DNA from: a virus
Taxonomy: Duplodnaviria; Caudoviricetes
Strand: one strand, 5' to 3'
DNA: 64,000 nucleotides
IMG/VR virus record: IMGVR_UViG_3300042924_003217
Location: 2,073 to 66,072 of that record
In this document: in pieces, positions 1-63,279 of the stretch
How the letters are laid out: every line of letters starts with the position of its first letter
Position numbering within the stretch: position 1 is the stretch's first letter
Notes under the pieces: model-generated
What the model was told of the DNA's origin: nothing
Database searches by the model: none
The model's input: only the letters and a program-made list of their open reading frames with translations
Position numbers and translations under genes: made by a program

Positions 1-280
1 AGAGGTTTTCGCGCTTTAGAGCCGTCACCTCGTTGTGGAGCTCCGCGTTCTCGCGTTCCATCTCATCGACAGCATCGCACCACTTGAACCCCTCGTAACT
101 GTTCTCGGATGTGGGAGGGCACTGGTACACGTCGCGACGTAGCGCGGCGTTCTCGCGTTCGAGTTCGCGGGTGAATTCGGGGGAAACAAACTCTTGCGGC
201 TCAGACGAAAGCCCCCAATGTCCGACAAAAGCAACGTCCACGTCTCGGACCGCTGCGTCAGTTCGTGGAGTGTCGCTCAC
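1..280 (-). CDS. Modular accessory coiled-coil protein, 3' end truncated by the window edge
   Basis: Manual translation from GTG at 280: MSDTPRTDAAVRDV...ELERENAALRRDVYQCPPTSENSYEGFKWCDAVDEMERENAEL...; N-terminal part identical to 62126..62428; GTGA overlap with the upstream ORF. Confidence 0.75.
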   Translation of the reverse strand, partial: MSDTPRTDAAVRDVDVAFVGHWGLSSEPQEFVSPEFTRELERENAALRRDVYQCPPTSENSYEGFKWCDAVDEMERENAELHNEVTALKRENL

Positions 281-499
281 GGCTGCGCCTCCTTTCGGGC
301 TTTAATTAAAGCCGTATTTGCGATTGACGGACAATCGCAACCGTAAGGGCAAATGCCGTCTCCATGCGGTGAATTCTGATCATATTTGGCTATCGTCTTT
401 AACGCCTCTAGCAGCGCGGAGTTTTGGTTCACAAGTACGCTTATCTCATCCCAACTGACTTTCATCTTTTCACGCAATGCCGCGTTTTCGCGTTCAAGC
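153..499. repeat. 347-bp direct repeat, copy 1 (copy 2 at 62301..62647)
   Basis: Identical on manual comparison; both borders fall inside LERENAAL-coding motifs and the flanks differ. Confidence 0.95.
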
Positions 500-660
500 T
501 GTTCGATCCTCCCTCGCAACGAGTATTCACGCTCGCTGCCCTTAGCGTTGAGCGTGCATTGCTCTTTCACCTCCTCCCGCAGCGCGGTGTTGTCGCGTTC
601 AAGCTGTCGCACTTTTTGAAACAACTCAGCCGCTCGACCTAATGCGTGGGTGTAGCTCAT
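277..660 (-). CDS. Modular accessory coiled-coil protein
   Basis: Start MSYTH at 660 after AAGGAGG with ATGA overlap; two LER(D/E)N(T/A)ALRE motifs; C-terminus identical to that of 62425..63279. Confidence 0.8.
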   Translation of the reverse strand: MSYTHALGRAAELFQKVRQLERDNTALREEVKEQCTLNAKGSEREYSLRGRIEQLERENAALREKMKVSWDEISVLVNQNSALLEALKTIAKYDQNSPHGDGICPYGCDCPSIANTALIKARKEAQP

Positions 661-998
661 GGCTTGGCCTCCTTGCGTGCGGCGTTGAACGCGGCGCGAT
701 CCATCTGCACGATGATGTCGTTGGGATACATCCAGCATTCGATCACCCGCCATTCGCGTCGTCCATCGAAGTGAGTGTATTCTGCCAACACTTCGGCTCT
801 CGCCAACACCTCGCGCAGCGCGGCGTTCTCGCCGTTCAATCGGTAGCGTTCCACAGCATCTTCGCACGCCATGTCGTGTGCTTTGCGGTTCTCCTCGCGC
901 AGCGCGGCGTTCTCGCGTTGGAGCTGTTGCATTTTTTGCAGCAGCTCCTCTTTTTCCGTGAGGCCGGAATTGCTCCACAACTTGGTGTTGTCGCTCAT
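657..998 (-). CDS. Modular accessory coiled-coil protein
   Basis: Two ENAALRE motifs, ends NAARKEAKP; ATGA overlaps on both sides. Confidence 0.8.
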   Translation of the reverse strand: MSDNTKLWSNSGLTEKEELLQKMQQLQRENAALREENRKAHDMACEDAVERYRLNGENAALREVLARAEVLAEYTHFDGRREWRVIECWMYPNDIIVQMDRAAFNAARKEAKP

Positions 999-1222
999 GA
1001 CTGACCTTTCTTAGCCTTGAGGCGTTCGGCCAGCATCTCGTCGGCGCACTCGTATGCGTGTTGAGAGGTGTCGCGCCATCCCAGTTCCCACGATGAGTTA
1101 GCCAACAGTCCTGACAACGCGGCTGCTGCGAGGTAGTCCCGCAGGGTCATGCCCTTAGCAATAACCGAGTGCCCTGTGGTGACGGGAAAAGCCGGGCCTC
1201 CGTCGTTTGGTGATGTGCTCAT
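995..1222 (-). CDS. Conserved small phage protein of unknown function
   Basis: Widespread phage motif GGPAFP...GMTLRDYxAA.AL.G...AY..AD.ML.ER. Confidence 0.85.
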   Translation of the reverse strand: MSTSPNDGGPAFPVTTGHSVIAKGMTLRDYLAAAALSGLLANSSWELGWRDTSQHAYECADEMLAERLKAKKGQS

Positions 1223-1542
1223 TGCTCAACCTCAAAAGTGAGTGCGCTCAAGATCTCTGAACAGACAGCAGCAAGCTGCGGGTTGTGCTGGCACTGGATC
1301 ATGGTTGCCGCGACAAATGCGCGAGCATTAGCCAAACGCTTCATCCGTTCGGCCAAGCCTTCGCCTGCGTTCACGCTTGCCGCCAACTCCTTTGCCTTCA
1401 CCTCCGCATCGGGACCATACATAGTGAAAGAATCACTGTAGTGGTAATCCGGAGTGCGGGTGACAATCCACCACCCCTGTTTCTTGCCTTCATGGACGCC
1501 TTCTACCGCTACCCATGGTTTTTTTTCTTCAGTCGTGCTCAT
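1219..1542 (-). CDS. Hypothetical protein
   Basis: AAGGAG SD with CA-rich leader; ATGA overlaps. Confidence 0.75.
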   Translation of the reverse strand: MSTTEEKKPWVAVEGVHEGKKQGWWIVTRTPDYHYSDSFTMYGPDAEVKAKELAASVNAGEGLAERMKRLANARAFVAATMIQCQHNPQLAAVCSEILSALTFEVEQ

Positions 1543-1739
1543 TTCTTAGTCTCCTTGTTGTTTGTGTTGTGCTTGTTGAACTGGCAGCAAGAGAGCGCCA
1601 GTCGTAAATGTTCGATAGCTTGCACAGCTTGTTCTGCTGTGCGCGACACACCATCGCCGTACTTCTCGTCCTGTTCTTCTTGCAGGATGCGAAGGTCCTC
1701 CACCAGTCGATCAAGCGCCTTCGGGTCTTCGTAGTTCAT
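1539..1739 (-). CDS. Hypothetical protein, paralogue of the N-terminus of 63276..63674
   Basis: RLVEDLRILQEEQDEKYGD vs RLVRDLRIMQESEDERNGD; ATGA overlap at 1736-1739. Confidence 0.75.
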   Translation of the reverse strand: MNYEDPKALDRLVEDLRILQEEQDEKYGDGVSRTAEQAVQAIEHLRLALSCCQFNKHNTNNKETKK

Positions 1740-2164
1740 GGCTGGGCCCCCTTGGCGCGTGCGGCGTTGATGGCGGTGCGGATGCGCTCTCGGCCCCGAA
1801 CTTGATCGTAGAGCCACTCAGTATCGTGACCCACAGTCCAGAATTCTCCTGCTAGCTCTTTGTCGCAGTCACGCCAGCAGACTCCACGCTTCAGCAGCCA
1901 ACTGAGCAGTTCAGAGTCTTCCCGCAGCGCGGCGTTCTGCTTATCTGCGTCATCACGCTCCTCTAAAGCCTTGTTCGTCATCTCGACAAGATCGGTTTTG
2001 CTCCAAACCTCATCGGGGATGTTGCGGAAACGATCTTCGCTTTGCTGAAGCTCTTCGCGCAGCTTGGCGTTTTCAAACTGCAATTCCTCAATGCGTTCAT
2101 GCTGCTCGTTGATTTTGCGAGTAGCCTGTTCCATGACAGAAGTAACGAAATCAAAAGTACTCAC
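1736..2164 (-). CDS. Modular accessory coiled-coil protein
   Basis: ENAKLREE and QNAALRED motifs; ends AINAARAKGAQP. Confidence 0.8.
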   Translation of the reverse strand: MSTFDFVTSVMEQATRKINEQHERIEELQFENAKLREELQQSEDRFRNIPDEVWSKTDLVEMTNKALEERDDADKQNAALREDSELLSWLLKRGVCWRDCDKELAGEFWTVGHDTEWLYDQVRGRERIRTAINAARAKGAQP

Positions 2165-2466
2165 GACTTAACCTCCTCATCGTTCCACAGCGGGGACGGT
2201 TTCTTGTTGGTCACGATCCACTCGGCAGTCAGGAGATAGCCGTGCGCATCGATCAGGTTGTCATCCTTGGGGCGGTGCATCTGACGACGCAGCTTGAGTG
2301 CCGTCATCATCAGCGCCACATCCATCGGCTCGATCTCGCTCTTCAACTTGTTGTTGAGGAGCCCGGACCACATCAAAGCGATGCCCTCGAAATCTTCGCG
2401 AGGGTCGCCGTAGTCGGTGTTGCGGTCACCGAGGACCAGTTGTGCTGCTTTGTCTGCGTTGTTCAT
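2161..2466 (-). CDS. DUF6378-like phage protein
   Basis: DR..DYGDP..DF..IA.MWS...DVALMM..LK..R...K.DN..D..GY pattern. Confidence 0.75.
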   Translation of the reverse strand: MNNADKAAQLVLGDRNTDYGDPREDFEGIALMWSGLLNNKLKSEIEPMDVALMMTALKLRRQMHRPKDDNLIDAHGYLLTAEWIVTNKKPSPLWNDEEVKS

Positions 2467-2481
2467 GGCAGTAGAAATGAA

Positions 2482-2598
2482 TTCGCTCGGGGCTCACTTA
2501 GTGAACCCACTCATGCGGTTTTTCCGTTACCTACGATCTCTGAAGTTTTTCAACTAGCAGTTATCTAGCCCGCATGATGCACGGTTTGTGCGAGCGAA
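2482..2598 (-). ncRNA. Putative structured RNA element (multi-stem junction)
   Basis: Nested complementary stems filling an intergenic gap; see findings. Confidence 0.45.
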
Positions 2599-2602
2599 AG
2601 TG

Positions 2603-2830
2603 TTAGTCATCAATCGCCGTTTCGGAATCGGCGTTGACGCAAAGTGCGTTGATCTTGGCCAACTTGGCCTCCAGCTCTTCAATCTTGGCGTCAGCCTCCA
2701 TAAGGGCGAGCACCAGCGTGTCGATGTCGTCAACAAACTGGGTGATGTTGTCGTGGTGCAGGCGCATGAATGCGCGGTTCTGATTAGCGGTGAAGGTTTT
2801 GAGCTTCATGGGTTGTTGTTGTTGCGCCAT
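2603..2830 (-). CDS. Hypothetical coiled-coil protein (alternative start at 2809)
   Basis: ORF with heptad-like C-terminus. Confidence 0.6.
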   Translation of the reverse strand: MAQQQQPMKLKTFTANQNRAFMRLHHDNITQFVDDIDTLVLALMEADAKIEELEAKLAKINALCVNADSETAIDD

Positions 2831-2883
2831 GACCTTGGACTGCGTTTGTCTCCAATGCAACATTATTTTGTAGGAAAGTTGTG

Positions 2884-3480
2884 TCAGCTCAAACGGAGCA
2901 CGGTGTCGTGACCACTCCTGACTACCTTGTACCCCACGGACTCGTACCGTCGCACAACTTCCGCAACCTCCACGAAGTCCACCAATGAGTTGCTCTCAAA
3001 CTCGCACTGAATGGGCCACTGGTGGTGCTTTCCGGCTCTGGTCAGGTAGCTCCACAACTGGAGCATGATCTTAGCGTCCATGCCCTCGGTGTCGATCTTC
3101 AGGCGCTCCACGCATTGAACGTCGTAAGCATCCCAGACGTACCCGATAGGCAGGCACGGCACCGTTTCCACGGTCACCAAGTGCTTGACCCCTAACTCAA
3201 TGTGTTTCGGGTGATAGTCGCCAATGCTGTTGCAGCCGCGAAGCCAGTGGGGCAGGCCATGTTTCTCGATGACATCCTCTGTGACGTAGTACAGGGACAG
3301 GATCTGAAACTTATCGGTTGGCGAAATCGCGATGTTGAGCTTCTGAACGCGGGGCTTGTTCGGCAACCGGTCCAAGTAGAATTTCAACGGCTCGATGGAC
3401 AGGCCAACGGTGTCGTCGCCTGCTTCCTCGATCAGGGTTTCAAAGCAGGACGTTCCAATTTCAATGAAGGAGTATAGCAT
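2884..3480 (-). CDS. FkbM-family methyltransferase-like protein
   Basis: FIEIGT, SIEP and LKIDTEG.D motifs. Confidence 0.75.
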   Translation of the reverse strand: MLYSFIEIGTSCFETLIEEAGDDTVGLSIEPLKFYLDRLPNKPRVQKLNIAISPTDKFQILSLYYVTEDVIEKHGLPHWLRGCNSIGDYHPKHIELGVKHLVTVETVPCLPIGYVWDAYDVQCVERLKIDTEGMDAKIMLQLWSYLTRAGKHHQWPIQCEFESNSLVDFVEVAEVVRRYESVGYKVVRSGHDTVLRLS

Positions 3481-3764
3481 GTGGGGGATTTGATGTTGTG
3501 GCGCTTACAAAGGGTTTTGATTGTGGTCTGAGAGGCTCCGTAACGATCACCAATCTCTCGGTACGAAATGCCAATCTCCCGTGCTTTCGTGATCTCTGCG
3601 AGCTTCTCCTCGTCCCAGACGTAGCGGTTGTTGTAGCGGTTGTTCTTGGCCTCGTACATGAGCTTCTTGAGGGGCACCCCAGCGGTTTCCCTCGGCAACT
3701 TACTCAAAAACCGCTCATGAATCGACTCAAAGTACCTCATGCATGACGATGTTTGGCTATCCAT
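3432..3764 (-). CDS. HTH DNA-binding protein (tandem paralogue A)
   Basis: W.EE....G.SYREIGDRYGASQTTI helix-turn-helix. Confidence 0.75.
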   Translation of the reverse strand: MDSQTSSCMRYFESIHERFLSKLPRETAGVPLKKLMYEAKNNRYNNRYVWDEEKLAEITKAREIGISYREIGDRYGASQTTIKTLCKRHNIKSPTCYTPSLKLERPALKP

Positions 3765-4071
3765 GGTTCTTGATCACGTTCTTGGTGATGCTGGTAGGCG
3801 AGTACATTTTGTGGATTTCCGCCAGTCTCTGAATGGCGCAGGCGCTCATGTTGAAGTGCTTTCCGATTCGCCGGAAGCTGACGCCCTGTAGCCGCATTTC
3901 ACGCATTGTCTGGATGTCTTCTTCGCTCCAGATGTAACCGTGCTTCTCGCGGCTCTTGATGCCCTTGTTCGTGAGTTTTGACGGATCCCCAGTCTCCACC
4001 GGCAGCTTACTCAGGTAGCGTTCGTAGATGCTCTCATAGTAGCGCATCGTTGATGCCGCTTGTGAGTCCAT
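3757..4071 (-). CDS. HTH DNA-binding protein (tandem paralogue B)
   Basis: WSEED...GVSFRRIGKHFNMS; shares MDSQ..S.MRY.ESI.ER.LSKLP.ET with its neighbour. Confidence 0.75.
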   Translation of the reverse strand: MDSQAASTMRYYESIYERYLSKLPVETGDPSKLTNKGIKSREKHGYIWSEEDIQTMREMRLQGVSFRRIGKHFNMSACAIQRLAEIHKMYSPTSITKNVIKNHG

Positions 4072-4073
4072 GG

Positions 4074-4220
4074 TTAGAGTTCGTGTGGAGTGTTGCGATA
4101 CCTGTTGCGGATCTCGTCCAAGCGAGCCATCTCCTCCAGTTCCGCTTCGGTGTAGCCGACATCGTTGGTATCGGCCAGAATCTCATCCAGTTCGGTCGTG
4201 TTTTGTTGAGCAAAGTTCAT
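4074..4220 (-). CDS. Small acidic hypothetical protein
   Basis: ATG at 4220; first gene of the leftward operon. Confidence 0.5.
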   Translation of the reverse strand: MNFAQQNTTELDEILADTNDVGYTEAELEEMARLDEIRNRYRNTPHEL

Positions 4221-4330
4221 CGCCCAAACTCTGAAAACACGACTGAGCGATTTCAAGCCTCAAAAGTTTTTTTCTAAAAAACTCGAAATAGGCTTGACGG
4301 TGTTCGGCGCGAGGTCCAATTGGGAAATCG

Positions 4331-4747
4331 ATGAAAGCACTAGCCACCAAAGCACGGACCCTTCAGTTCGTTGCTCATTCAGGACACAACCTCATTGAGG
4401 GACGGTCCTTCTACGGAGATCACGCCGCTCTGGGTGAACTCTACGGTACGTACACCAAGCTCTACGATTTGATCATCGAACGGATGATCTCTGTCGATGA
4501 GACAACCCAACCGCTTGAGATCACCGTTGCCGCTGCGCAGGAAGCTGCTGGCGTTGGTGAAACCAAGGACGCTAATCAGATCTTCGCAGATCTCTCCTCG
4601 TTGGAGATTGAGCTTCGCGGACTGTGCAGCAAGTCCCTTGATCAGGACGAGTTGACGCCGGGAGTTAAGAACCTCGTTGAACAGATCGCCAGCGATAGCG
4701 AGGACCGTTCGTACAAGATCGACCAAAGGATCGCCAATGTTCGTTAA
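4331..4747 (+). CDS. Ferritin/Dps-like four-helix protein
   Basis: H..H..I.G..FY.DH..LGELY......D..IER matches the Dps ferroxidase-type signature. Confidence 0.7.
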   Translation: MKALATKARTLQFVAHSGHNLIEGRSFYGDHAALGELYGTYTKLYDLIIERMISVDETTQPLEITVAAAQEAAGVGETKDANQIFADLSSLEIELRGLCSKSLDQDELTPGVKNLVEQIASDSEDRSYKIDQRIANVR

Positions 4748-4976
4748 CAACAGACCAGCCAAGGAGGGGGAAGAGGAATACGCTACGCTGACCATGCGCG
4801 TTAAGGACGGTCAGTTCAGCACCAACTTTGAGCTATCTCACACTCCCGACATCAGCAAAGGCCAAGAAGGCATCTCGTTTGTTCAGATGGCCGCTTACGT
4901 TGCTTTCGAGAGCGTAAAAAAGTTTGCCGATGAAATCTCGCAAAACGCACAAAACCCAGAAACCCCTAAGTCATGA
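4737..4976 (+). CDS. Hypothetical protein
   Basis: ORF overlapping neighbours, AAGGA upstream. Confidence 0.55.
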   Translation: MFVNNRPAKEGEEEYATLTMRVKDGQFSTNFELSHTPDISKGQEGISFVQMAAYVAFESVKKFADEISQNAQNPETPKS

Positions 4977-5124
4977 CGAATTGGTCGCTGAAATTGAACG
5001 ACTTCGTGCCATTATTGCCGAGGCTGCTCAGTATCCCTTCCAGTCCATCAACCTACATAACATACTCAAGAAAGGTCTCAATGAAGCCCATCAAGAAGAA
5101 AACAGGACGACCGCTGCTCGGTAA
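4930..5124 (+). CDS. Hypothetical protein
   Basis: Short helical ORF in operon. Confidence 0.5.
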   Translation: MKSRKTHKTQKPLSHDELVAEIERLRAIIAEAAQYPFQSINLHNILKKGLNEAHQEENRTTAAR

Positions 5125-5266
5125 AGAGCGCCGCGTGCTCCTCACCGTATCAATCGACCCCAGTACTGCTGCGTACATCAAGCGTAACGCCAGCAAGTAC
5201 GGGTCCCGTGGCAGCGTGGTTGATCGCGCTCTGGCCAAGCTCATCCGAAAGGACAAGCGGTCATGA
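5081..5266 (+). CDS. Ribbon-helix-helix DNA-binding protein
   Basis: GRP..GKERRV.LTVSID...SRGSVVDRAL resembles RHH. Confidence 0.6.
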   Translation: MKPIKKKTGRPLLGKERRVLLTVSIDPSTAAYIKRNASKYGSRGSVVDRALAKLIRKDKRS

Positions 5267-5886
5267 GCAAGCTTACCAATCTCAGTGAGATCGCTGATCT
5301 GGCCGACAAGGCTTGGATCAATGGTTCCTTCAAGGCTATCGTCACCCGCGCCAAGGCTGGTTCCGGCAAGGTTCCCGGTCGCGCCGTGCTGGTTGACCCC
5401 GACAACGCCGCGATCACGGCTGAGTCCTGCTGGTGGGGTGGGCGCGATCCGTCGCCCTTCGAAGGCAAGATCGTCAACTTCGCTGGCGCTGGCATGTCCA
5501 AGTCCACGTACAAGGATAAGCTCCAGATCAACGTGAACGAGAAGGCGAAGGTGGACGTGTTCCAAGACGCCATTCCCGGTCAGCACATGCCTCACAAGGC
5601 TCCTGCTGTCGCTGCTTCCGTTAAGCCTGCCGTTGCGGGCGATTTTAACGAGGAAATGACCAAGATCGGGCAGACGTGGCTCCACAGCCTCAGGACCGCT
5701 CTAATGGTCAAGGAACTGGCATCCCTGAGCCTGCAACACGATCTGACCGAGGATCAATTTCAGGCTCTTGTGTCCTCGATCTTCATTGAGGCGAATCGTA
5801 AGGGCTTGGGCGCTAACCCGCCTCCCTTGAGCCCCCGCGAGAATCCAGCCCCCTCCCACGCACCCGCACCGGAAGACCCGTACTGA
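5263..5886 (+). CDS. Putative single-stranded DNA-binding protein (OB-fold-like)
   Basis: Beta-rich N-terminus, Pro-rich acidic tail ending EDPY; directly before exonuclease and primase. Confidence 0.45.
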   Translation: MSKLTNLSEIADLADKAWINGSFKAIVTRAKAGSGKVPGRAVLVDPDNAAITAESCWWGGRDPSPFEGKIVNFAGAGMSKSTYKDKLQINVNEKAKVDVFQDAIPGQHMPHKAPAVAASVKPAVAGDFNEEMTKIGQTWLHSLRTALMVKELASLSLQHDLTEDQFQALVSSIFIEANRKGLGANPPPLSPRENPAPSHAPAPEDPY

Positions 5887-5909
5887 GCAGCACCTGAGCA
5901 ACAACAACA

Positions 5910-6719
5910 ATGAGCTTTTTCACGTCGGGTAACCATTGGTATCAGGTCGATGCCAAGGGCGCTATTGCACCAGCGCACGATATCGACCTACGGGAGGCGC
6001 GGAAGATTAACGCCTACCCCTCGATCACAACCATCCTCAAGGAGCGGGCCAACCCTGCTCTGGATAAGTGGAAACAGGATGAGTTGTTCAACGCGGTAGT
6101 GGACAACAAGCGGAAAAAGGGCGAGAGCGAGGACGATTACCGTGAGCGCATCGCAACCATTGCCCAGACCAAGGGCCGGGAGGCTGCTGAGTTCGGCACC
6201 CGCCTGCATGATGCGCTGGACTTGTTCCCCCAGACCACCATCGACGCGGACTTAGCTCCATACGTCGAACTATTCGCGCCCAGTTATTTCCATCACGTCA
6301 GGCAGCGTATTGCGAGTGAGATCATGCTGGCTGACACCGAGATTGGGGTTGCGGGTCGTACCGACTTGATCGCGGAAACCGAATGGGGTCTGGCAATCAT
6401 CGACTACAAGACAAGCAAGTTCAAGGGCGGTAAGGCTAGCTTTTGGCCGAGCTACCGAATCCAGTTGGCTTTCTACGCCAAGGCGTACCAGAAGCTGCAC
6501 AACTTGGCCAAACCCCCGGTGTGCATCAACGTGGGCATCAACTCCCTTGCGCCCACTGAGCCAGTTTGGAAGGTCTACACGGTTGAGGAGCAGGAGGCGG
6601 CGTATGCGGAGTTTCTCGCAATTGCCTTCCTGTGGTTCTCCACCAAGAACTACTGGCCTGTGTCCAACCATCGTTGGACCGCTCACTTCAACGTCAACGG
6701 CAAGCTTCAATCCGCCTAA
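5910..6719 (+). CDS. PD-(D/E)XK exonuclease (RecB/Cas4-like phage recombination nuclease)
   Basis: YPSITTIL, GTRLH, AGRTDLI, IIDYKTS, QLAFYA motifs. Confidence 0.9.
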   Translation: MSFFTSGNHWYQVDAKGAIAPAHDIDLREARKINAYPSITTILKERANPALDKWKQDELFNAVVDNKRKKGESEDDYRERIATIAQTKGREAAEFGTRLHDALDLFPQTTIDADLAPYVELFAPSYFHHVRQRIASEIMLADTEIGVAGRTDLIAETEWGLAIIDYKTSKFKGGKASFWPSYRIQLAFYAKAYQKLHNLAKPPVCINVGINSLAPTEPVWKVYTVEEQEAAYAEFLAIAFLWFSTKNYWPVSNHRWTAHFNVNGKLQSA

Positions 6720-8551
6720 TGGACACCGCAGAACTCAACAACGCTCTCAAGCAGCGCATGAACGACATGGTCTCCATGTTGTACCCGAATGCCAAGGTTC
6801 GCGGGTCGATAGCCCACCTTGGCGGGATTTCGGGTGAGGCTGGCGAGTCGTTCCATATCTACGTCAGTGGCCCCCGTATCGGTTGCTTCATTGACAGGGC
6901 GAACGAAGCCGACAAGGGAGGTACGCCGCTCTACCTGTGGTCAAAGGCCAAAAACATCACGTTCAGCCAAGCCGTCAAAGAAGCCAAAGACTGGCTGGGC
7001 ATCGCAGACAACCACGTCAGCGTGAAGAAAGTGAAGCCGAAGACCTACTCCCAGCCCAATCTGGCAGGGCGAGGGGTCAAGCGACTGGAGCCGGAAACCC
7101 GAGCCATGGACTACCTCGTCATGGAGCGGAAGCTGGACCCGCTGATCCTTCACAAGAACAAGATTGCGGACTGCGACAATGGGGAGGTGATAGTCTTCCC
7201 GTACTTCGATCAGGTGACTGGAGAAAAGCCGCAGGCTTGCCATGTGAAGTATCTCGCGGTCCAGCGCGACGTAGACGGTAAGAAGAAGATGTGGTCTTCT
7301 GACGGCACCAAGCGGTGCTTGTTCGGGAAGCTGGGGATCGGTGAGGATGAGCGGGAGCTTATCATTGCCGAAGGCGAGATCGATGCCCTCAGTTGGCAGT
7401 CTGTAGGTTTGCCTGCGGTCAGCGTGCCCAATGGCGTTGCGGATCAAGAGTGGATCGAATTGGACTGGGAGTGGTTGGAGCGTTTTGAGAAGATCTACAT
7501 CTCGACCGACATGGATGAGCCGGGACGTGAGGCTGCGGAGAAGTTTGCCCGACGCCTTGGCCTGCACCGTTGCTACATCGTCAAGCTGCCGCTCAAGGAC
7601 GCTAATGAGTGCCTCTTAGACGGTATGAGCCGTGACGACTTCATCCGCAACCTAGAGGACGCCAAGCAGATCGATCTTGAGGAAATCAAGTCGGCTGGCG
7701 CGTACACGGACAACGTCTGGAGCCTGTTCGAAGGCAAGAACGGCAACAGCGGTTACCCTGTTCCGTGGGACGGTATCCCGCTGCGAATTCGTCCGGGCGA
7801 GTTCACGGTTGTTTCTGGTTACTCAGGGCACGGTAAGACGCAGATGCTCAATCACCTGATGATTCATCTGACGGCTTTGGGTGCCAAGATCTTCGACGCT
7901 TCGCTTGAGGTTACGCCCAGCAAGACGCTTCAGATGATGACGCGCACTGCGCTGGCCAAGCGATACCCCGACAACAAGCAGGAGCTTGAAGCGTGCATCA
8001 ACTGGCTCAACGAGAGCATGTACTTCTACGACTACGTCGGCATCGCCAACAAGAGCAAGATTCTTGAGGCAATGGCTTACGCCAGAAAGCGGTACGGTAT
8101 CGATGTCTTCGTGATCGACTCCCTGTTCAAGTGCGGGGTGTCCGGTGAGGACTTCAATGGTCAACGCACGTTCATGGACGAACTGACGAGCTTTGCCCGC
8201 GAGACAGGTGCCCACGTCATCTTGGTGGCGCATGCCCGCAAGTCCGAGAACGAGGACAAGGTGCCGACCAAGACCGACATCGCGGGGTCGTCTGACATCA
8301 ACAACTCAGCCTTCAACGTGCTGATCATGTGGCGCAACAAGCTCAAGCAGCGCAAGTATGATGAAGCTGTTGCCAAGGAGGAAGCCATGAAGGCTGTGGA
8401 GATTCAGTCGTGGTACGACGGCAAGCTCCGTCTCGACAAGCAGAAGTTTGGCGAAGGCGAAGAGAAGGACCTCAGCCTGTACTTTGACTCAGTTAGCTGG
8501 CAGTACTGGCCCAAGCAGCACCATCGCCATGCCTACTTCAAGCAAGGTTAG
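6719..8551 (+). CDS. DNA primase-helicase (T7 gp4/Twinkle-like: TOPRIM plus SF4 helicase)
   Basis: EGEIDALS, SVPNG, TDMDEPG, KDANE; Walker A GYSGHGKT, Walker B FVIDSL, LVAH, DIAGS; TAATG overlap. Confidence 0.95.
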   Translation: MDTAELNNALKQRMNDMVSMLYPNAKVRGSIAHLGGISGEAGESFHIYVSGPRIGCFIDRANEADKGGTPLYLWSKAKNITFSQAVKEAKDWLGIADNHVSVKKVKPKTYSQPNLAGRGVKRLEPETRAMDYLVMERKLDPLILHKNKIADCDNGEVIVFPYFDQVTGEKPQACHVKYLAVQRDVDGKKKMWSSDGTKRCLFGKLGIGEDERELIIAEGEIDALSWQSVGLPAVSVPNGVADQEWIELDWEWLERFEKIYISTDMDEPGREAAEKFARRLGLHRCYIVKLPLKDANECLLDGMSRDDFIRNLEDAKQIDLEEIKSAGAYTDNVWSLFEGKNGNSGYPVPWDGIPLRIRPGEFTVVSGYSGHGKTQMLNHLMIHLTALGAKIFDASLEVTPSKTLQMMTRTALAKRYPDNKQELEACINWLNESMYFYDYVGIANKSKILEAMAYARKRYGIDVFVIDSLFKCGVSGEDFNGQRTFMDELTSFARETGAHVILVAHARKSENEDKVPTKTDIAGSSDINNSAFNVLIMWRNKLKQRKYDEAVAKEEAMKAVEIQSWYDGKLRLDKQKFGEGEEKDLSLYFDSVSWQYWPKQHHRHAYFKQG

Positions 8552-8834
8552 GCAGATCAACAGCATACCGGGGGAGCCTCTGCGCTTCTGGGTTGAGTCC
8601 TCAGAAGGCGACATCCCCCACATGGTGGATTTGTTGGAGAAGTCGGGTAACGGAGAATGCTCCTGCCGCGACTTCCAGATCCGCTGTCAGCGCACTTTCA
8701 GGGAAAACGGCAGAAATCGCGTCGAGTACGGAGACCCTGACCGCACACGATGCAAACACATCAACGCAGTATGTCTGTTCCTAGCGAACAGAGTCATCGA
8801 GGAAGTGAAAAATGAACACAGCAAAAGTAATTAA
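8529..8834 (+). CDS. SWIM zinc-finger protein
   Basis: CSCRDF...CKH motif. Confidence 0.8.
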   Translation: MPTSSKVRQINSIPGEPLRFWVESSEGDIPHMVDLLEKSGNGECSCRDFQIRCQRTFRENGRNRVEYGDPDRTRCKHINAVCLFLANRVIEEVKNEHSKSN

Positions 8835-9354
8835 GGCAGCTATCGCCATGATTGTAGTCGCAGTCATGATCAACGTGGTTTGGTCGTCCAACAAGCCTAT
8901 CAAACAATGGCCTAAGGTAACAGAGGTGGACGAGCAAAAGATGCTGGAGAGCATCCGGCAGATCGAGAACAGCGGCTGGAGAACTGGTGCGCGGGGCGAG
9001 AAAGGTCCCTACCAGATTCATCCGAATACGTGGGACGAGCACTGCAACATTCCGGTTAGCTTGGCACCCAAGTCCTACCACGACAGGATTGCCCTCAGCA
9101 TCCTGCGCCAGTTTGGTAGCATCTTGCGTAAGCGTAACATAGAAGTTAATGCATATAATCTTGCATTAGCTTGGTGCAGTGGCCCATATTACAAAAAGCC
9201 GAGCAGCAGAGCGGTTAGCTACGCTTCCCGGCTCAGGAACTACTATGAGTCGATAAATGAAAGCCAGTATTCTCAATCGCAGCAACTGCCCGGAGTGCGG
9301 TACAAGCTTGCTGGGGAACGTGATTCCCGAAGCTTTGCGCAAGGAGTACGGTAA
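8812..9354 (+). CDS. Lytic transglycosylase/lysozyme-like protein with N-terminal membrane anchor (candidate endolysin)
   Basis: Hydrophobic N-terminus; IRQIENSG...G..G.YQI...TW lysozyme-like motif. Confidence 0.7.
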   Translation: MNTAKVIKAAIAMIVVAVMINVVWSSNKPIKQWPKVTEVDEQKMLESIRQIENSGWRTGARGEKGPYQIHPNTWDEHCNIPVSLAPKSYHDRIALSILRQFGSILRKRNIEVNAYNLALAWCSGPYYKKPSSRAVSYASRLRNYYESINESQYSQSQQLPGVRYKLAGERDSRSFAQGVR

Positions 9355-9472
9355 CCGTGAACGATTCACCCGACTTGTTGAAGTCCACGACTGGAACCGA
9401 AAGAGGATTGTTGGATGGGAGTGTCCCGATTGTGGGGCGAACTTCAGCAATGATCACAATCGGAATCGATAA
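9257..9472 (+). CDS. Small zinc-ribbon protein
   Basis: CPECG and WECPDCG. Confidence 0.65.
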   Translation: MKASILNRSNCPECGTSLLGNVIPEALRKEYGNRERFTRLVEVHDWNRKRIVGWECPDCGANFSNDHNRNR

Positions 9473-9917
9473 CGGCACGTCGGGGTCTTGGTCCGTCCTT
9501 GGGAACGGGTGGGTGTACTTTGCGCCCGTTCCCACTAAGATGTCCCTGTTGGGGAGGATGGAGCGCCGGATCACCCGTATCGATGTGCCGCCGTTATTGC
9601 AAACCCTCATAAAAAGCAAGGGAGACAGGGCTTACGTGGAGCGTCCGTTCACAGGGAGGTTCCTGAATGCCGTGCTGCCTGCGCAAAGGGCCTTTGAAGC
9701 CGTTTTAATCGCCTTAGAGACCGCAGGGGTGCCTTATGAGGTGATCGACAGCAAAGTCTGGCAAAAGCCAATGCTTGGGGCCGTAAAGGGCTCTGAGAAC
9801 CTAAAGCGGGCCAGCATGGAGCTTGGCATCAAACTGTACCCTCAGTTGTCCTATCAGATCACCAAGCACGGGGATGCGGATGGACTACTGATTGCGCATT
9901 ACTTCAGCTATCGGTAA
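9450..9917 (+). CDS. RuvC-like Holliday junction resolvase
   Basis: IGIDNG, YVE, W, ADGLLIA catalytic pattern. Confidence 0.8.
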   Translation: MITIGIDNGTSGSWSVLGNGWVYFAPVPTKMSLLGRMERRITRIDVPPLLQTLIKSKGDRAYVERPFTGRFLNAVLPAQRAFEAVLIALETAGVPYEVIDSKVWQKPMLGAVKGSENLKRASMELGIKLYPQLSYQITKHGDADGLLIAHYFSYR

Positions 9918-9929
9918 ACTGCCGGGGCT

Positions 9930-10142
9930 GTGGTAGATGCCCCAAAGTTCAACATTGGCGACCTTGTCTATCACCGGACAGAGGACATTCCCGGCATCGT
10001 GATCGCCATGATCTACCGCCCCACAGGCATGCTGTATCAGGTAGTTTGGCAAGGGCGGATCACGGAAGACCACTACGAGGTGGAGTTGACCACCGAAAAG
10101 CCGTTCTTCGTCAGTAGCGGTGCGGATACTGAGGAAGCTTAG
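9930..10142 (+). CDS. Small SH3-like hypothetical protein
   Basis: PKFNIGDLVYH...G.V...Y.V.W pattern. Confidence 0.6.
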   Translation: MVDAPKFNIGDLVYHRTEDIPGIVIAMIYRPTGMLYQVVWQGRITEDHYEVELTTEKPFFVSSGADTEEA

Positions 10143-10147
10143 TATGC

Positions 10148-10177
10148 TTGACACGCAGGCACCAGCTATTGTATGCT
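10148..10177 (+). promoter_or_regulatory. Sigma70-like promoter
   Basis: TTGACA-N18-TATGCT. Confidence 0.6.
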
Positions 10178-10243
10178 TTACGCATAGTTTAGGACTAAGC
10201 CGTGTTATTGGCGCGGCAACGGTTGCGCAACCTGTCCAGAACG

Positions 10244-10278
10244 CCTCCTGTACGCACTGTGCAGGAGGTTTTCTTTTT
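10244..10278 (+). terminator. Rho-independent terminator
   Basis: CCTCCTGTAC/GTGCAGGAGG stem followed by TTTTCTTTTT. Confidence 0.8.
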
Positions 10279-10313
10279 GCGGTAGGCGCTTGTGGTATGA
10301 TCGCCCCTACGCA

Positions 10314-11150
10314 ATGAACCGACTATTCTTCGATTTAGAAACCTCGCCAAACATCGTGTTGAGTTGGCGGGTGGGCAGGAAGATCAACATCGACCACGAC
10401 AACGTTCTTAGAGAGCGATCTATCATCTGCATCGGCTACAAGTGGGAGAATGACAAGAAAGCCCACGGTTTGGTCTGGGACGGGAAGCAAGACGACAAGG
10501 CGATGCTCAAGGAGTTCGTGGAGATCGCGAACATGGCTGACGAGCTTGTTGCGCACAACGGGGACCGATTTGACCTGCCGTGGATTCGAACCCGCTGCAT
10601 CTTCCACGGGATCCCGATGTTCCCCAGTTACAAGACGATTGACACGTTGCAGTGGGCGCGGCGCAGGTTCCTGTTCAACAGCAACCGTCTCGACTACCTT
10701 GGCAAGTTCCTTGGCGTTGGCGGCAAGATCAAGACCGAGTTCGACCTATGGAAGCGCATCACGCTCGATAACGACCGCGAGGCGCTTGAGCGGATGCTGG
10801 TGTACTGCAAACGCGACGTGCAGATGCTACAGGAGGTGTACAACAAGCTGGCCCAGCAGGCGCCCCACCACAGCCACGTTGGTGTGATGGAAGGTTTGGA
10901 TAAATGGACCTCACCGTTCAACGGTGGCAAAAATGTGGTGCTATCGAAGCACGTTGTGTCGGCTTACGGGACGCGCAAACACCGCATGCAGTGTCTCGAC
11001 ACGGGTCGCTACTTCACCATCAGCGACAAATCCTTCTCCGACTACCGGGAATGGCGCAAAGACAAGGACGACAAAGCGAAGAAGCTTACTGCTTCGACTC
11101 GCGGTTCCACTTCCACAGCAGGTACAAAATGCCGAGCAGACCGGCGATGA
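10314..11150 (+). CDS. Stand-alone DnaQ-like (RNase_H_2/DEDDy) 3'-5' exonuclease
   Basis: FDLET, AHNGDRFD, IDT, LDYL, YCKRDV; extended -10 TGGTATGAT upstream. Confidence 0.9.
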   Translation: MNRLFFDLETSPNIVLSWRVGRKINIDHDNVLRERSIICIGYKWENDKKAHGLVWDGKQDDKAMLKEFVEIANMADELVAHNGDRFDLPWIRTRCIFHGIPMFPSYKTIDTLQWARRRFLFNSNRLDYLGKFLGVGGKIKTEFDLWKRITLDNDREALERMLVYCKRDVQMLQEVYNKLAQQAPHHSHVGVMEGLDKWTSPFNGGKNVVLSKHVVSAYGTRKHRMQCLDTGRYFTISDKSFSDYREWRKDKDDKAKKLTASTRGSTSTAGTKCRADRR

Positions 11151-11253
11151 TTCCGACAAGCTGATTGATGACGCCCAAGGCGGCGGAACTAACCGCTGGT
11201 ACTGCGGCTGCGATTAGGTCTTTGACCGTGAGGTGCATGTGGTTGTTGTCCAT
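11086..11253 (-). CDS. Small membrane protein, holin-like (55 aa, absent from the ORF track)
   Basis: MDNNHMHLTVKDLIAAAVPAVSSAALGVINQLVGIIAGLLGILYLLWKWNRESKQ; hydrophobic segments with charged tail, downstream of holin-like gene. Confidence 0.6.
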   Translation of the reverse strand: MDNNHMHLTVKDLIAAAVPAVSSAALGVINQLVGIIAGLLGILYLLWKWNRESKQ

Positions 11254-11281
11254 GTTACCTTTTCATTGTTATCAGGACAAC

Positions 11282-11722
11282 TTATTTGGTGCCGTAAATT
11301 TGCCGTTGGAACCGGATGCCGAGCCAGAAGTAGCCGCACGCGAAGCAGAAGCTGACGATCTCCGGTTGCAGTGCGCCCAACTTGTCCTGTGGCAGCGTCC
11401 AGATGTACCAGCACGCACCAAACACCATTGCAGGCCTCACAAGCCGCGTTACCGCCTCAACGCAGGTGAAGACCCAGTGCATGGCCATGGATGCGTTAGC
11501 GGGCGGCTGGTAGCTGCTGCCGATGGCCCCTTCCTGTGCCTTGCGGAAGGCCTCAAGCTCACCAATCGCGATGTCGCGCTCCTTGAGGGCTTGCAATTCC
11601 GCGATGCGTCGCTTGGCTGCGGACCACTCCTTTGCCTCACCGGCAACAACCGACAGTAGCTGGGTGAAGCCACCAAGCAGGGTGCCACCAGCAGCGGATG
11701 CGAGGAACGAGATGAGGCTCAT
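11282..11722 (-). CDS. Putative holin (3-TM holin-like)
   Basis: Hydrophobic segments; LVRP and YFWLGIR motifs. Confidence 0.65.
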   Translation of the reverse strand: MSLISFLASAAGGTLLGGFTQLLSVVAGEAKEWSAAKRRIAELQALKERDIAIGELEAFRKAQEGAIGSSYQPPANASMAMHWVFTCVEAVTRLVRPAMVFGACWYIWTLPQDKLGALQPEIVSFCFACGYFWLGIRFQRQIYGTK

Positions 11723-11725
11723 GGC

Positions 11726-11968
11726 TTAGCACTTCCAAGCTTTGCGCGACCAGTAGTTAGCCGAGAACTTGTCACCGGTGCCCTTGATGCCGCCTGAACG
11801 TGCGCAGTAGGACGCCTTCCGTTCCGGCTGGCTGAGCTTGATGCTCATGTTGGCGTCGCCAAACCGCACGACCTTGCTCTGCCCGTCCTTGCAGGCGCGT
11901 ACAACCGACTTCTTGCCGCCCTGTACGTCACGACGGGGCTGGTTGCAGGGGAGTTTCTTGGCGTTCAT
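11726..11968 (-). CDS. Conserved small basic phage protein
   Basis: KVVRFGD...RKASYCARS...SANYWS..W motif. Confidence 0.75.
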   Translation of the reverse strand: MNAKKLPCNQPRRDVQGGKKSVVRACKDGQSKVVRFGDANMSIKLSQPERKASYCARSGGIKGTGDKFSANYWSRKAWKC

Positions 11969-12212
11969 GATTCGGTGGGGTTGATCGGATTTGTGCGGTG
12001 GACGTTTTCCAGTTTATCGCAAGGAACCCGTAGCAGCAAATGTTATAATCGACATCATTTGCGTCTTTCTCGCTTTTAACGGGTACGTTGATGTCTAAGT
12101 GTTTGCAGACGTACTCCTGATTGTCGTTTTCAAAGACCCGCCACACGTGATCAACCGACCCGCGACCGGGAAGGCCACGGGTCTTGTTGAAGCGTATGGC
12201 GTACTTGTTCAC
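11928..12212 (-). CDS. Hypothetical protein
   Basis: GTGA overlap in late operon. Confidence 0.65.
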   Translation of the reverse strand: MNKYAIRFNKTRGLPGRGSVDHVWRVFENDNQEYVCKHLDINVPVKSEKDANDVDYNICCYGFLAINWKTSTAQIRSTPPNHERQETPLQPAPS

Positions 12213-37513: not shown

Positions 37514-39967
<2,454 letters not shown>

Positions 39968-40904: not shown

Positions 40905-40946
40905 GATAGACTTTACCGAAGGCTGACGCAACTCTATTACTTACAG

Positions 40947-62129: not shown

Positions 62130-62428
62130 GGCTTGGCCTCCTTGCGGGCGGCGTTGATAGCAGCGCGAAGATCGATGCAGATGCCCATGTTTTCAGGACA
62201 TGGGTGGCCGGTCTCTACTTTCTTGTGCAGGACGAAAGCCTCTAAGACTTCGCTCGCCGTTCTCACTAGCCGCTCTCGACTCTCTCGCAGCGCGGTGTTG
62301 TCGCGTTCGAGTTCGCGGGTGAATTCGGGGGAAACAAACTCTTGCGGCTCAGACGAAAGCCCCCAATGTCCGACAAAAGCAACGTCCACGTCTCGGACCG
62401 CTGCGTCAGTTCGTGGAGTGTCGCTCAC
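62126..62428 (-). CDS. Modular accessory coiled-coil protein
   Basis: Same N-module as ORF 1..280 but a different C-module after LERDNTALRE; ends NAARKEAKP. Confidence 0.8.
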   Translation of the reverse strand: MSDTPRTDAAVRDVDVAFVGHWGLSSEPQEFVSPEFTRELERDNTALRESRERLVRTASEVLEAFVLHKKVETGHPCPENMGICIDLRAAINAARKEAKP

Positions 62429-62647
62429 GGCTGCGCCTCCTTTCGGGCTTTAATTAAAGCCGTATTTGCGATTGACGGACAATCGCAACCGTAAGGGCAA
62501 ATGCCGTCTCCATGCGGTGAATTCTGATCATATTTGGCTATCGTCTTTAACGCCTCTAGCAGCGCGGAGTTTTGGTTCACAAGTACGCTTATCTCATCCC
62601 AACTGACTTTCATCTTTTCACGCAATGCCGCGTTTTCGCGTTCAAGC
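62301..62647. repeat. 347-bp direct repeat, copy 2
   Basis: Identical to 153..499. Confidence 0.95.
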
Positions 62648-63279
62648 ACCCCAAGACGAATCTTGAGTTCCGCCGACTCCTGCGCCCACTCACGGTTGGA
62701 CTCGCTCTGCTGTTTCTGCTGCGCGAAAAGAGCCGTACGCAACTCGTTGCGGTCATCGCGCAGCGCAGCGTTGTCGCGTTCGAGCACCTCGAAAGCATCG
62801 GACCACTTGAGCCCCTCGTATCCGTTTTCGGAGGTAGGGGGGCATTGGTACACGTCACGACGCAGCTCGGCGTTCTCGCGTTCGAGTCGCTCCACCTTAC
62901 CGAGCAGAGCGCACTCGCGCTCGCCGCCCTTTCCGAGCAGCACGCATTGCTCGGCGTTCTCGCGTTCGAGTTGTTGCACTTTCTGCAACAGTTCCTCCGA
63001 CTCGTGGATGGCCCACGGCTGGCTGGCCTGCGACACGCGCTCGCAGATGAGGTCGTTCAGCTCCTTGGCCTTCAGGACGAGCGGCTCCATCTTCTCGTGG
63101 ACCGCTTTGAGCTGACGCTCGATGTCGCCGAAACGTGCGACCTCGTACCTCAGGCCGTTGGCCGCGTTGGTCATCTCGATCATCCGGGCGTGCACTTCCT
63201 TCGGCGTCCGCGTCTGCTGCGTGCGCTGCCTCGCGTCGTGCTCGGCGATGATGTCACTGACAATCGTGTTCGTGCTCAT
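62425..63279 (-). CDS. Multi-module accessory coiled-coil protein
   Basis: Four LER(E/D)NA motifs separating modules found in other ORFs. Confidence 0.85.
   Translation of the reverse strand: MSTNTIVSDIIAEHDARQRTQQTRTPKEVHARMIEMTNAANGLRYEVARFGDIERQLKAVHEKMEPLVLKAKELNDLICERVSQASQPWAIHESEELLQKVQQLERENAEQCVLLGKGGERECALLGKVERLERENAELRRDVYQCPPTSENGYEGLKWSDAFEVLERDNAALRDDRNELRTALFAQQKQQSESNREWAQESAELKIRLGVLERENAALREKMKVSWDEISVLVNQNSALLEALKTIAKYDQNSPHGDGICPYGCDCPSIANTALIKARKEAQP

Follow-up and report, generated by a model that had tools for sequence, protein, structure and literature searches.

Why should one short coding unit recur, always in the same reading frame, in gene after gene near both extremities of a phage contig? 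The question is raised by a stretch of 64,000 nucleotides (nt), here called the window, which comprises bases 2073-66072 of a single virus record of 66,072 base pairs (bp), IMGVR_UViG_3300042924_003217. On its minus strand, chains of small genes carry an in-frame motif of nine residues (27 nt), L[EQ][RGK][EDQ]N[AT][AEK]L[RH], which we refer to as the LERENAALR unit. The predicted proteins are shown to be built from modules of about 20-60 residues, set apart by this one recurring unit. Comparison with related sequences further shows that, in the natural population, the unit is the preferred point of exchange, deletion and fusion, always in frame, both within the operon and between distant phages.

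Recurrence of the motif

A preliminary description of this DNA had listed 13 in-frame copies of the motif, and all 13 were recovered, exclusively on the minus strand (Table 1). Two further copies lie in the 2,072 contig bases preceding the window, giving a total of 15, which are spread over seven genes (A, B, C, G, X, R2 and R3) with one to four copies each and are all in direct orientation. A stricter peptide pattern still found 11 of the 13 window copies and had no match in other frames or regions of the 64 kilobases (kb). At the level of DNA, a 29-mer taken from the preliminary description matched three times with up to three mismatches (0 in 100 shuffled sequences), and a 20-nt core matched seven times at the same tolerance, always on the minus strand and inside the array, where 0.01 matches are expected. 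An iteron, a Chi-like site and an RNA structure were considered for the motif and rejected, the copies being dispersed over 6 kb and tied to one reading frame and one peptide.

The density of the motif is high here: 13 copies in the window, compared with five copies at four loci among 80 loci (741 kb) that had been fetched via homologues of the motif-free gene R1. Searching IMG/VR with a specific DNA pattern of the motif gave 32 contigs, and a codon-degenerate pattern gave at least 115; among the matches listed, there are 109 distinct motif hits, all of which fall within open reading frames (ORFs) of at least 59 amino acids (aa; median 139 aa). The LERENAALR unit is not phage-specific. A 23-nt pattern with LERENAALR had 11 scattered matches, one each, in bacterial genome contigs (L152-L162; L numbers denote sequence records, X numbers sequencing runs). 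The ORFs concerned encode ordinary cellular coiled coils, two of them MreC-like, in GC-rich bacteria, and the scan of these contigs for the motif DNA yielded neither a prophage array nor a clue to the host.

Exchange of modules at the motif

The most conspicuous repeat within the window is a block of 359 bp (Table 1), the two copies of which are 99.4% identical, with both differences falling in the downstream motif copy. A second self-match, again bounded by the motif, relates positions 45-164 to 62768-62887 (120 bp at 85% identity) and represents the RRDVYQCPPTSEN module reappearing inside 62425-63279. This reappearance had been pointed out in the preliminary description, the module statements of which were all correct: the front MSDTPRT...EFTRE continues at the left locus with RRDVYQCPP but in 62126-62428 with ESRERLVRT, the C.L..KG.ERE module is present in both 277..660 and 62425..63279, EL.QK..QL is found in three genes, and KMKVSWDE...CPYGCDCP ends two proteins with different fronts.

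For a base-level alignment, both window copies of the block were combined with six related records (L002, L004, L052, L053, L054 and L055). The block is identical in the left and right window copies, L002, L004, L052 and L053, and L055 has five scattered differences; L054 forms an exception, as its match stops earlier, inside the N1 front module. On one side similarity ends just upstream of the first motif copy, where at least four distinct contexts are joined; on the other it ends within or just after the second copy, followed by at least five distinct contexts. Further rearrangements were found in the relatives. Two separate records, L004 and L052, have the front half of gene C fused to the back half of gene B, and the 31 bp at which the two alignments overlap are the motif. 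In L017 the middle module of C is followed by the C-terminal module of G. In L054, gene C lacks its middle module, gene B ends in another C-terminal module, and R3 is shortened and begins with a new front; in L007, a relative 97-99% identical to window positions 1921-13174, similarity is lost at the KQNAALR copy. Across other records the KMKVSWDE module follows at least five different fronts. All recombinant products in the relatives are intact ORFs. In Logan contigs of run X13, gene A has lost 144 nt, in register, from one motif copy to another, and a replaced segment has its edge at the KQNAALR copy.

Breakpoints were collected from self-hits and from high-scoring segment pairs that link the array to the relatives L002-L047, with a minimum length of 60 bp and a minimum identity of 80%; L016 and L038 were excluded because they duplicate the contigs of L004 and L002, and so were ends coinciding with the ends of a locus or of the window contig. 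Fourteen of 30 distinct block ends lie within a motif copy ±5 nt, compared with 8.2% of positions (binomial P = 2e-8), so that the clustering anticipated in the preliminary description is indeed observed. With the duplicated block counted once, the figure is 10 of 25 (P = 1.4e-5). Gene junctions, taken from 45 nt before to 25 nt after a start, hold five of the 30 ends, with 13.9% expected, and this enrichment is not significant.

A second line of evidence comes from the peptides. We compared 139 distinct contexts, drawn from 80 sources: of 19 recurrent upstream modules 15 occur with two or more downstream modules and, in the reverse direction, 18 of 23 recurrent downstream modules occur with two or more upstream ones; the front FVGHWGLSSEPQEFVSPEFTRE alone has five different continuations. 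As a control for continuity we used the 134 contexts with 24 clear residues per side and called two segments alike at 66% or more over 12 residues. Where the 12 motif-adjacent residues were alike, the next 12 within the same module were alike in 69/100 and 86/104 pairs, whereas in the same pairs the 12 residues across the motif were alike in only 26/100 and 26/104 (Fisher P = 1.5e-9 and 2.6e-17). Continuity is thus about 26% across the motif, against 69-83% within modules. These data support the motif as the main junction for in-frame exchange of modules between genes and between phages.

Uniformity of the motif at the DNA level

The 15 copies of this genome are strikingly uniform in their codons: E2 is GAA in 10/10 cases (38% in the genome), R3 is CGC in 11/11 (45%) and N5 is AAC in 15/15 (71%). 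Summed codon homozygosity is 5.85, compared with 3.14 expected, a value reached in 0/20,000 simulations, although the copies include one duplicated pair and are not fully independent. In the 109 IMG/VR copies listed, which are codon-unbiased, R3 is CGC in 87/109 and N5 is AAC in 102; A6 is GCC in 80 (73%), A7 is GCG in 82 (75%) and L8 is CTG in 81 (74%). The background for the last three positions, 694 AAL tripeptides elsewhere in the same loci (some non-genic frames included), is 36% GCC, 40% GCG and 21% CTG. Within the IMG/VR copies (L016-L151) the preference is position-specific, the first alanine of the pair being preferentially GCC and the second GCG, though both encode alanine.

The suggestion that synonymous variation is suppressed in the motif therefore holds for its core (R3, N5, A6, A7 and L8) and fails for E2, L1 and R9, which vary freely in the wide sample. 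Since the core codons do not vary freely, convergence purely at the protein level is unlikely. Such uniformity of the core would fit either a common origin of the unit or recurrent exchange via the motif, and is no proof of selection at the DNA level. Exact runs shared between copies in this genome have a median length of 8.5 nt and a maximum of 26. The minimal segment for pairing is given as 23-27 bp for Red-beta and 31-34 bp for RecA in the part of PMC3945230 available; judged by length, the 20-26 nt shared here barely reach the former range and fall short of the latter.

Gene chains and genomic setting

The left chain runs on the minus strand through genes H, G, F, E, D, C, B and A (window 2466 down to 1) and continues into the first 2,072 bases of the contig with the rest of A, X, Y, smaller ORFs and P175. 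The right chain, on the same strand, consists of R5, R4, R3, R2 and R1 (from 63913 to 61857); beyond it lie a glycosyltransferase-like protein of 301 aa, for which no relative was found in IMG/VR, and P191. Thirteen consecutive junctions of these chains are 4-nt stop/start overlaps, ATGA or GTGA, mostly after AAGGAGG. The junctions constitute a second recurrent sequence, AAGGAGGCNCAGCC(A/G)TGAGC, which combines a Shine-Dalgarno site with the overlap; as a consequence, ...AR(A)KEAQP is a common protein end, with MS as the start of the protein that follows. Stretches of 41-47 nt at gene ends are 88-93% identical between genes, and the fronts of F and R4 are 47% identical over 45 aa. Each chain is closed at its downstream end by one of two related proteins, P175 (L001 333-860, contig coordinates) and P191 (window 60318-60893), which have 175 and 191 aa, are 54% identical and match no family. 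R1 has 552 relatives in IMG/VR, the closest 68% identical. Scans for promoters and terminators at both loci gave site counts no higher than in shuffled sequence.

Table 1. Coordinates of the motif copies, shared blocks, genes and other features discussed (window positions)
Feature	Position	Strand	Remarks
Motif copies, left locus (8, 27 nt each)	35-61, 137-163, 472-498, 577-603, 813-839, 897-923, 1922-1948, 2057-2083	-	located by peptide pattern
Motif copies, right locus (5, 27 nt each)	62285-62311, 62620-62646, 62758-62784, 62860-62886, 62944-62970	-	located by peptide pattern
359-bp shared block, left copy	141..499	-	C-terminal module of B, gene junction, N1 module of A; motif copy at each end
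359-bp shared block, right copy	62289..62647	-	C-terminal module of R3, gene junction, N1 module of R2; motif copy at each end
Gene A, full length 173 aa	1..280 in window; ends in the contig's first 2,072 bases	-	N1 front, motif, RRDVYQCPP module, motif, LKRENLSLR; LTGENDALH outside window
Gene B, 127 aa	277..660	-	front, LERDNTALR, EEVKEQCTLNAKG module, LERENAALR, KMKVSWDE...CPYGCDCP C-terminal module
Gene C, 113 aa	657..998	-	front, LQRENAALR, EENRKAHDM module, LNGENAALR, EVLARAEVL C-terminal module
Genes D, E, F	995-1222, 1219-1542, 1539-1739	-	small, translationally coupled, without motif
Gene G, 142 aa	1736..2164	-	front, LQFENAKLR, middle module, ADKQNAALR, DSELLSWLLKRGVCW C-terminal module
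Gene H, DUF6378 protein	2161..2466	-	76.1 bits vs cut-off 27.1; upstream neighbour in the same coupled chain
Gene R1, 90 aa	61857..62129	-	without motif; widespread small phage protein family
Gene R2, 100 aa	62126..62428	-	N1 front, LERDNTALR, ESRERLVRT...HPCPENMGIC C-terminal module
Gene R3, 284 aa	62425..63279	-	N-terminal helical domain; four motif copies between VLLGKGGERE, RDVYQCPP, DDRNELRT and KMKVSWDE modules
Genes R4, R5	63276-63674, 63671-63913	-	coupled, without motif
Recurrent junctions	277-280, 657-660, 995-998, 1219-1222, 1539-1542, 1736-1739, 2161-2164, 62126-62129, 62425-62428, 63276-63279, 63671-63674	-	stop/start overlap
OB-fold protein, single-stranded DNA-binding-like (predicted)	5263-5886	+	no sequence family match
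PD-(D/E)XK exonuclease	5910-6719	+	replication block
Primase-helicase	6632-8551	+	replication block
DNA polymerase exonuclease subunit	10290-11150	+	replication block
Large terminase	50260-52248	-	structural block, which also holds collagen-like tail fibre proteins

The record belongs to an uncultivated tailed phage, with a replication block on the plus strand followed by a long structural block on the minus strand. IMG/VR classifies it as linear, without end repeats, and CheckV gives a completeness of 100%. Its left-end sequence is present in 24 public runs from 23 studies, all of them lake-water or freshwater metagenomes. The best matches of the primase-helicase in a cultured-phage collection are Vibrio and Pseudomonas phages at 36-37% identity; in the same collection, which may omit records near the window's own genome, neither megablast with both loci nor tblastn with R3 gave a match.

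Other features of this genome deserve mention. Tail fibre-like genes with collagen-like repeats are located at 19238-21874, 37514-39967 and about 40017-40931; the tandem repeats have periods that are multiples of 9 (9 to 60), match the PHROGs 'collagen like minor tail' and 'tail fiber', and add to this phage a further type of repeat that keeps the reading frame. Two small proteins encoded side by side, paralogues of each other (3432-3764 and 3757-4071; MDSQ..S.MRY.ESI.ER.LSKLP) have weak HTH_38 matches, and this pair at the head of the minus-strand early chain may be regulators. Also within the early chain is a protein with an FkbM-type methyltransferase domain (2884-3480; 28.4 bits, cut-off 22.7). 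The sole Rfam match is a tRNA-Thr (anticodon TGT) at 59595-59670 on the minus strand, distant from the array.

One genome or an assembly path

The position of the two loci at the extremities of the contig calls for caution. In L002, a 39-kb IMG/VR contig with terminase and neighbouring genes only 30-36% identical to those of the window, a stretch of 3.9 kb matches contig positions 66072-64358 (99.3%) and 2571-1 (99.6%), joined through the 359-bp block. The order R5-R4-R3-block-A-X-Y-...-P175 is thus one contiguous cassette in L002, whereas in the window contig its halves form the two extremities. The overhangs so defined are contig 1-2212 and 64720-66072 (window 62648-64000 plus the 2,072 preceding bases). 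When Logan contigs from four runs were compared with contig positions 1-6000, none bridged the block; unitigs break there, and in runs X1 and X2 the block is a separate piece of 347 nt. Mean word depth for overhang, block and body is 20.4, 46.4 and 25.1 in X1, possibly the source run; 16.2, 23.3 and 6.8 in X2; and 54-61, 93.3 and about 0-8 in X7. The B-C region of X7 has a depth of 0-1.1, and loose ends, as judged by eye, run from the block into R3 and into R2 sequence. Cassette and body differ in abundance among samples, and the cassette occurs without the body. X7 is the only run with the cassette and a B-C region at a depth of 0-1.1; runs holding 0.41-0.46 of the words had been considered as 'cassette only' and were rejected as such, since X13, one of them, holds diverged variants of both parts. 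A block depth equal to the sum of its flanks is expected for one genome with extras and for two genomes alike.

From these observations the two-locus layout is probably an assembly path through the 359-bp block, combining a circle of 62,148 bp (B-block-R2) with the cassette of a co-occurring phage. A chimeric assembly would, according to the preliminary description, refute its reading, and on this point the data are not clean: no contig bridges the block in four runs and the depths of the flanks differ. The competing possibility, to which we attach somewhat less belief, is one real genome with a tandem, diverged segmental duplication, in which the loci are true paralogous arrays, neighbours on a circular map, while gene conversion maintains the identity of the block. 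It is favoured by the completeness estimate, by a 66,931-bp contig, close to 66,072 bp, which is one of 59 recorded for protein X, and by the loose ends of X7, according to which the right-locus order probably exists. The two loci are moreover collinear, the parts outside the block copies matching those just inside them: F and R4 are 47% and P175 and P191 54% identical, B and R3 have the same C-terminal module, and A and R2 have the same front. Such collinearity is, however, equally expected for alleles of one locus. Against a duplication stand also the distance of 62,148 bp between the block copies in a record without end repeats, the unequal abundance of cassette and body among X1, X2 and X7, and the fact that the overhangs make up one contiguous cassette, at 99.3-99.6%, in the distant L002.

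If the contig is indeed misjoined, the comparison of left and right loci is one of alleles shuffled in the population and not of paralogues within one array. The central result is unaffected: B, C and G hold six motif copies in contiguous DNA, and the cassette genes A, X and R3 hold nine. The tests on relatives are likewise untouched, because they are independent of the contig ends.

Nature of the proteins

Searches of the motif-bearing proteins against Pfam, PHROGs and NCBIfam gave no family above cut-off and only weak, generic coiled-coil matches. Leucines seven residues apart with an asparagine between them are the heptad pattern of dimeric leucine zippers. L-E-R-E-N-A-A-L-R would conform to this pattern, with Leu at position d and Asn at position a. 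Gene B has a sub-threshold match to bZIP_1 (PF00170; 24.2 bits, cut-off 27.6) covering the zipper part only, the best bZIP_2 (PF07716) match reaches 20.4 bits (cut-off 22.3), and precomputed Pfam labels of bZIP type are attached to some database homologues of X. A bZIP transcription factor was rejected, the matches being below the gathering score and no basic cluster preceding the motif in the sequences as read directly.

A single-sequence AlphaFold model of R3 has low confidence (predicted local distance difference test, pLDDT, 65) and consists largely of helices, the C-terminal part standing apart. The four motif copies (residues 104-112, 132-140, 166-174 and 212-220) are all located in predicted helices, and the Cys/Pro-rich RDVYQCPP module is non-helical, again at low confidence. 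Several C-terminal modules have clusters of Cys or His (CPYGCDCP, HPCPENMGIC). A complex prediction for B with C (score 0.01, mark 0.34) speaks neither for nor against their pairing.

The preliminary description had compared these proteins to the lambdoid Ead/Ea22 family. The comparison is apt as an analogy between mosaic coiled-coil accessory proteins and does not extend to family membership: PF13935 (Ead_Ea22, IPR025153) had no match in 20 proteins including all seven motif-bearing ones (E up to 0.1 / 0.01), nor in the complete record translated in six frames (E up to 0.1), a search in which control genomes matched. In the ESM Atlas, gene B had no match of 0.9 or higher, and an Ead/Ea22-named cluster at 0.81 is below the 0.9 level for a lead. 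By analogy one may guess at oligomerising early accessory proteins of the Ea22 kind, the early expression being suggested by gene position.

Recombination, selection or a dedicated system

Taken together, we probably deal with a hypervariable early-gene region of a freshwater tailed phage, in which small, coupled and mostly helical proteins are shaped by short-homology recombination and by selection at a linker that encodes a zipper. Within the ~20-26 nt common to motif copies, template switching or homeologous recombination over short homology would take place on rare occasions, carried out by general phage or host recombination functions. Selection would then retain those products that have an intact helical register, and the codons would be kept uniform by repeated exchange through the motif. 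On this reading the motif is a passive recombination substrate and not a programmed diversity generator. Of the proposal that it serves as a frame-preserving crossover site within a diversification system, the exchange junction is supported and the dedicated system is not.

Several points weigh against this reading. Eleven of the 30 breakpoints fall outside both motif and gene junction, and the break of L054 is inside the N1 module. The pairs of the continuity control are non-independent, as are the motif copies in the codon test; all sequences are short-read assemblies, and most relatives come from motif-targeted searches, which introduces ascertainment. Recurrence of the motif may in part reflect convergence at the protein level, since both peptide and DNA occur in bacterial coiled coils, and in the wide sample E2 is GAA in 47 and GAG in 62 copies, with L1 and R9 mixed, which is free variation. 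Only 10/104 motif pairs share 20 nt or more, five share 23 or more and none shares 27; given such short runs, homology-driven exchange would be inefficient. RecT and ERF were not found in the record, where no search was aimed at Rad52. Finally, selection alone could concentrate the surviving breakpoints at a helix-compatible linker.

The last point can be extended to a full alternative, according to which breaks are illegitimate and random, the motif is a generic, convergent coiled-coil unit, joints elsewhere destroy the protein, and DNA identity is irrelevant. The generic peptide with its occurrence in cellular coiled coils, the short exact runs with their median of 8.5 nt, the several free synonymous sites and the 11 breakpoints elsewhere would all fit. 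We nevertheless regard it as unlikely: neither codon usage nor this tripeptide at other places would lead one to expect so marked a uniformity of the core codons, the junctions lie inside shared nucleotides with 100% identity right up to them, and in X13 the deletion runs in register from one motif copy to another.

A more far-reaching version of exchange at the motif is harder still to believe. Here the LERENAALR codon block would be a maintained universal adaptor for the combinatorial assembly of mini-proteins in a freshwater phage metapopulation, resembling exon shuffling without introns. The motif would be selected for evolvability as well as structure, and the shared zipper would pair the products of the operon, so that swaps rewire host-directed (e.g. 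anti-defence) complexes.

A programmed diversification, in which the proteins encoded at 5263-6719 actively reshuffle the modules at the motif during infection, is very unlikely. The 'exonuclease/SSB pair' of the preliminary description is a fair name for a PD-(D/E)XK exonuclease (PF12705 at 39.3 bits, phrog_298) and a probable OB-fold single-stranded DNA-binding protein. The latter was modelled together with five relatives (pLDDT 68.5); its first ~100 residues adopt an OB fold and match single-stranded DNA-binding OB domains of the PDB in Foldseek at E = 1e-5 to 1e-3. It is conserved beside the exonuclease in six related contigs at 41-53% identity. Both genes lie 3-4 kb from the array, which together with the uniform DNA core of the motif and a motif density far above that in phages with R1 homologues (5 copies/80 loci/741 kb) speaks for such a system. 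However, these are ordinary phage replication and recombination genes, nothing links the pair to the array, and the role of driver suggested for it was not upheld. Eight relatives of the exonuclease (59-70% amino acid identity, L008-L015) have no motif in the fetched flanks. The cassette is shared with L002 at 99% while the structural genes are 30-36% identical; thus the modules travel without the pair.

Profile searches agree with the earlier statement that no site-specific recombinase or reverse transcriptase is visible. RVT_1 had no match in six frames of the 66-kb record, in a search in which control genomes matched, and Phage_integrase and Resolvase had none in the record; together with the negative results for RecT and ERF this argues against a programmed system. 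A search for Enc34/gp2.5-like proteins was uninformative, its control being silent. A diversity-generating retroelement was rejected for lack of a reverse transcriptase match. A shufflon or invertible cassette was rejected in the absence of Phage_integrase and Resolvase matches and with all 15 copies direct on one strand; as all copies are direct, inversion is impossible, which counts further against programmed diversification.

Least probable of all is that the shuffled orders are chimeric short-read joins at the repeated motif: all sequences come from metagenome assemblies, the 359-bp block is a point where Logan unitigs break off, with no bridging record in four runs, and the window contig resembles a circle with two overhangs, but the longest exact run between motif copies of this genome (26 nt) is shorter than the 31-letter Logan words, the same junctions occur in separate records (L004/L052; L034/L048; L003/L049/L054; runs X7/X13), and the block is shared by at least seven records with different flanks.

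Relation to known systems

The class of mechanism, conserved in-frame motifs serving both structure and recombination, is known. In the array, motifs alternate with unrelated modules and natural chimeras break at motifs above chance, which by these sequence features would place it among systems of module shuffling mediated by conserved motifs. Its closest parallels differ in instructive ways. In the gp38 adhesins of T-even phages, as far as the available part of PMC3157838 describes them, short conserved in-frame motifs (GRMs) alternate with hypervariable segments, and the motif is structural as well; gp38 is a receptor-binding protein of the virion with a fixed set of five motifs and four segments in one gene. 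Unlike this, the motif of the array is helical and zipper-like and occurs one to four times per gene in seven small early genes, and modules cross genes and change in number. Family searches of the array proteins of the Pfam/PHROGs type gave no homology to gp38. Type I HsdS subunits (PMC3874165, from the portion at hand) have variable domains between conserved coiled-coil 'leucine zipper' helices, and crossing-over in the near-identical helix DNA swaps domains, as here. There the homology is ~130 nt long and concerns two target-recognition domains of known function, whereas the array offers 20-27 nt, many short modules and many genes, in a phage.

Lambda Ea22 and the Ead/Ea22-like proteins of the exo-xis region are early accessory proteins of mosaic build, in which a short front and a long coiled coil precede unrelated, swapped C-terminal domains, and Ea22, a coiled-coil scaffold with swapped C-terminal domains, forms tetramers (PMC10834534, in extract). 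In that extract mosaicism appears as blocks and not as exchange at one repeated motif, and the array phage has neither a PF13935 nor an integrase match. Relaxed homologous recombination (PMC3945230 and PMC2327257, in their available sections) likewise produces mosaic joints at short identity, 23-27 bp compared with 20-26 nt here. Those sections deal with gene-scale modules and with homology in intergenic regions or at gene boundaries, in temperate phages with Rad52-like recombinases. The joints of the array, in contrast, are inside ORFs, in frame and at a repeated coding motif, in a record without a RecT or ERF match and in which no search was aimed at Rad52. Diversity-generating retroelements and shufflons are similar in producing localised, repeat-bounded protein variation on a mobile element; the array differs from them in lacking the defining enzymes, in having only direct repeats, and in that variation is seen between genomes.

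A literature search covering 8.4 million papers found the string LERENAALR in none of them, and a search on coiled-coil domain shuffling in early phage genes gave, to judge from titles and abstracts of the 10 papers listed among 15 matches, nothing equivalent. New here are a unit of only 27 nt, reused in many small early genes of one operon, modules of sub-domain size, and the occurrence of the unit, with almost perfectly clean junctions, in a broad range of contigs from uncultivated phages.

Significance

The modular genome hypothesis includes an older idea of linker sequences. Whether phage mosaicism arises via short conserved 'linkers' or via random breaks followed by selection is a long-standing question, which is hard to test on natural material. 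The array combines a defined 27-nt in-frame joint, flanks that are either 100% identical or unrelated, and many natural recombinants in public lake metagenomes. Owing to these three features the two models of mosaicism give separable predictions, namely for recoding of the motif, for linkage decay and for long-read haplotypes. On the practical side, both assemblers and completeness estimates can be led astray by repeats of this kind and by the 359-bp block that different phages share. For phage biology, the array means that small early 'hypothetical' proteins can consist of interchangeable sub-domain pieces, and this matters for annotation, for the clustering of proteins and for finding proteins of anti-defence or host takeover.

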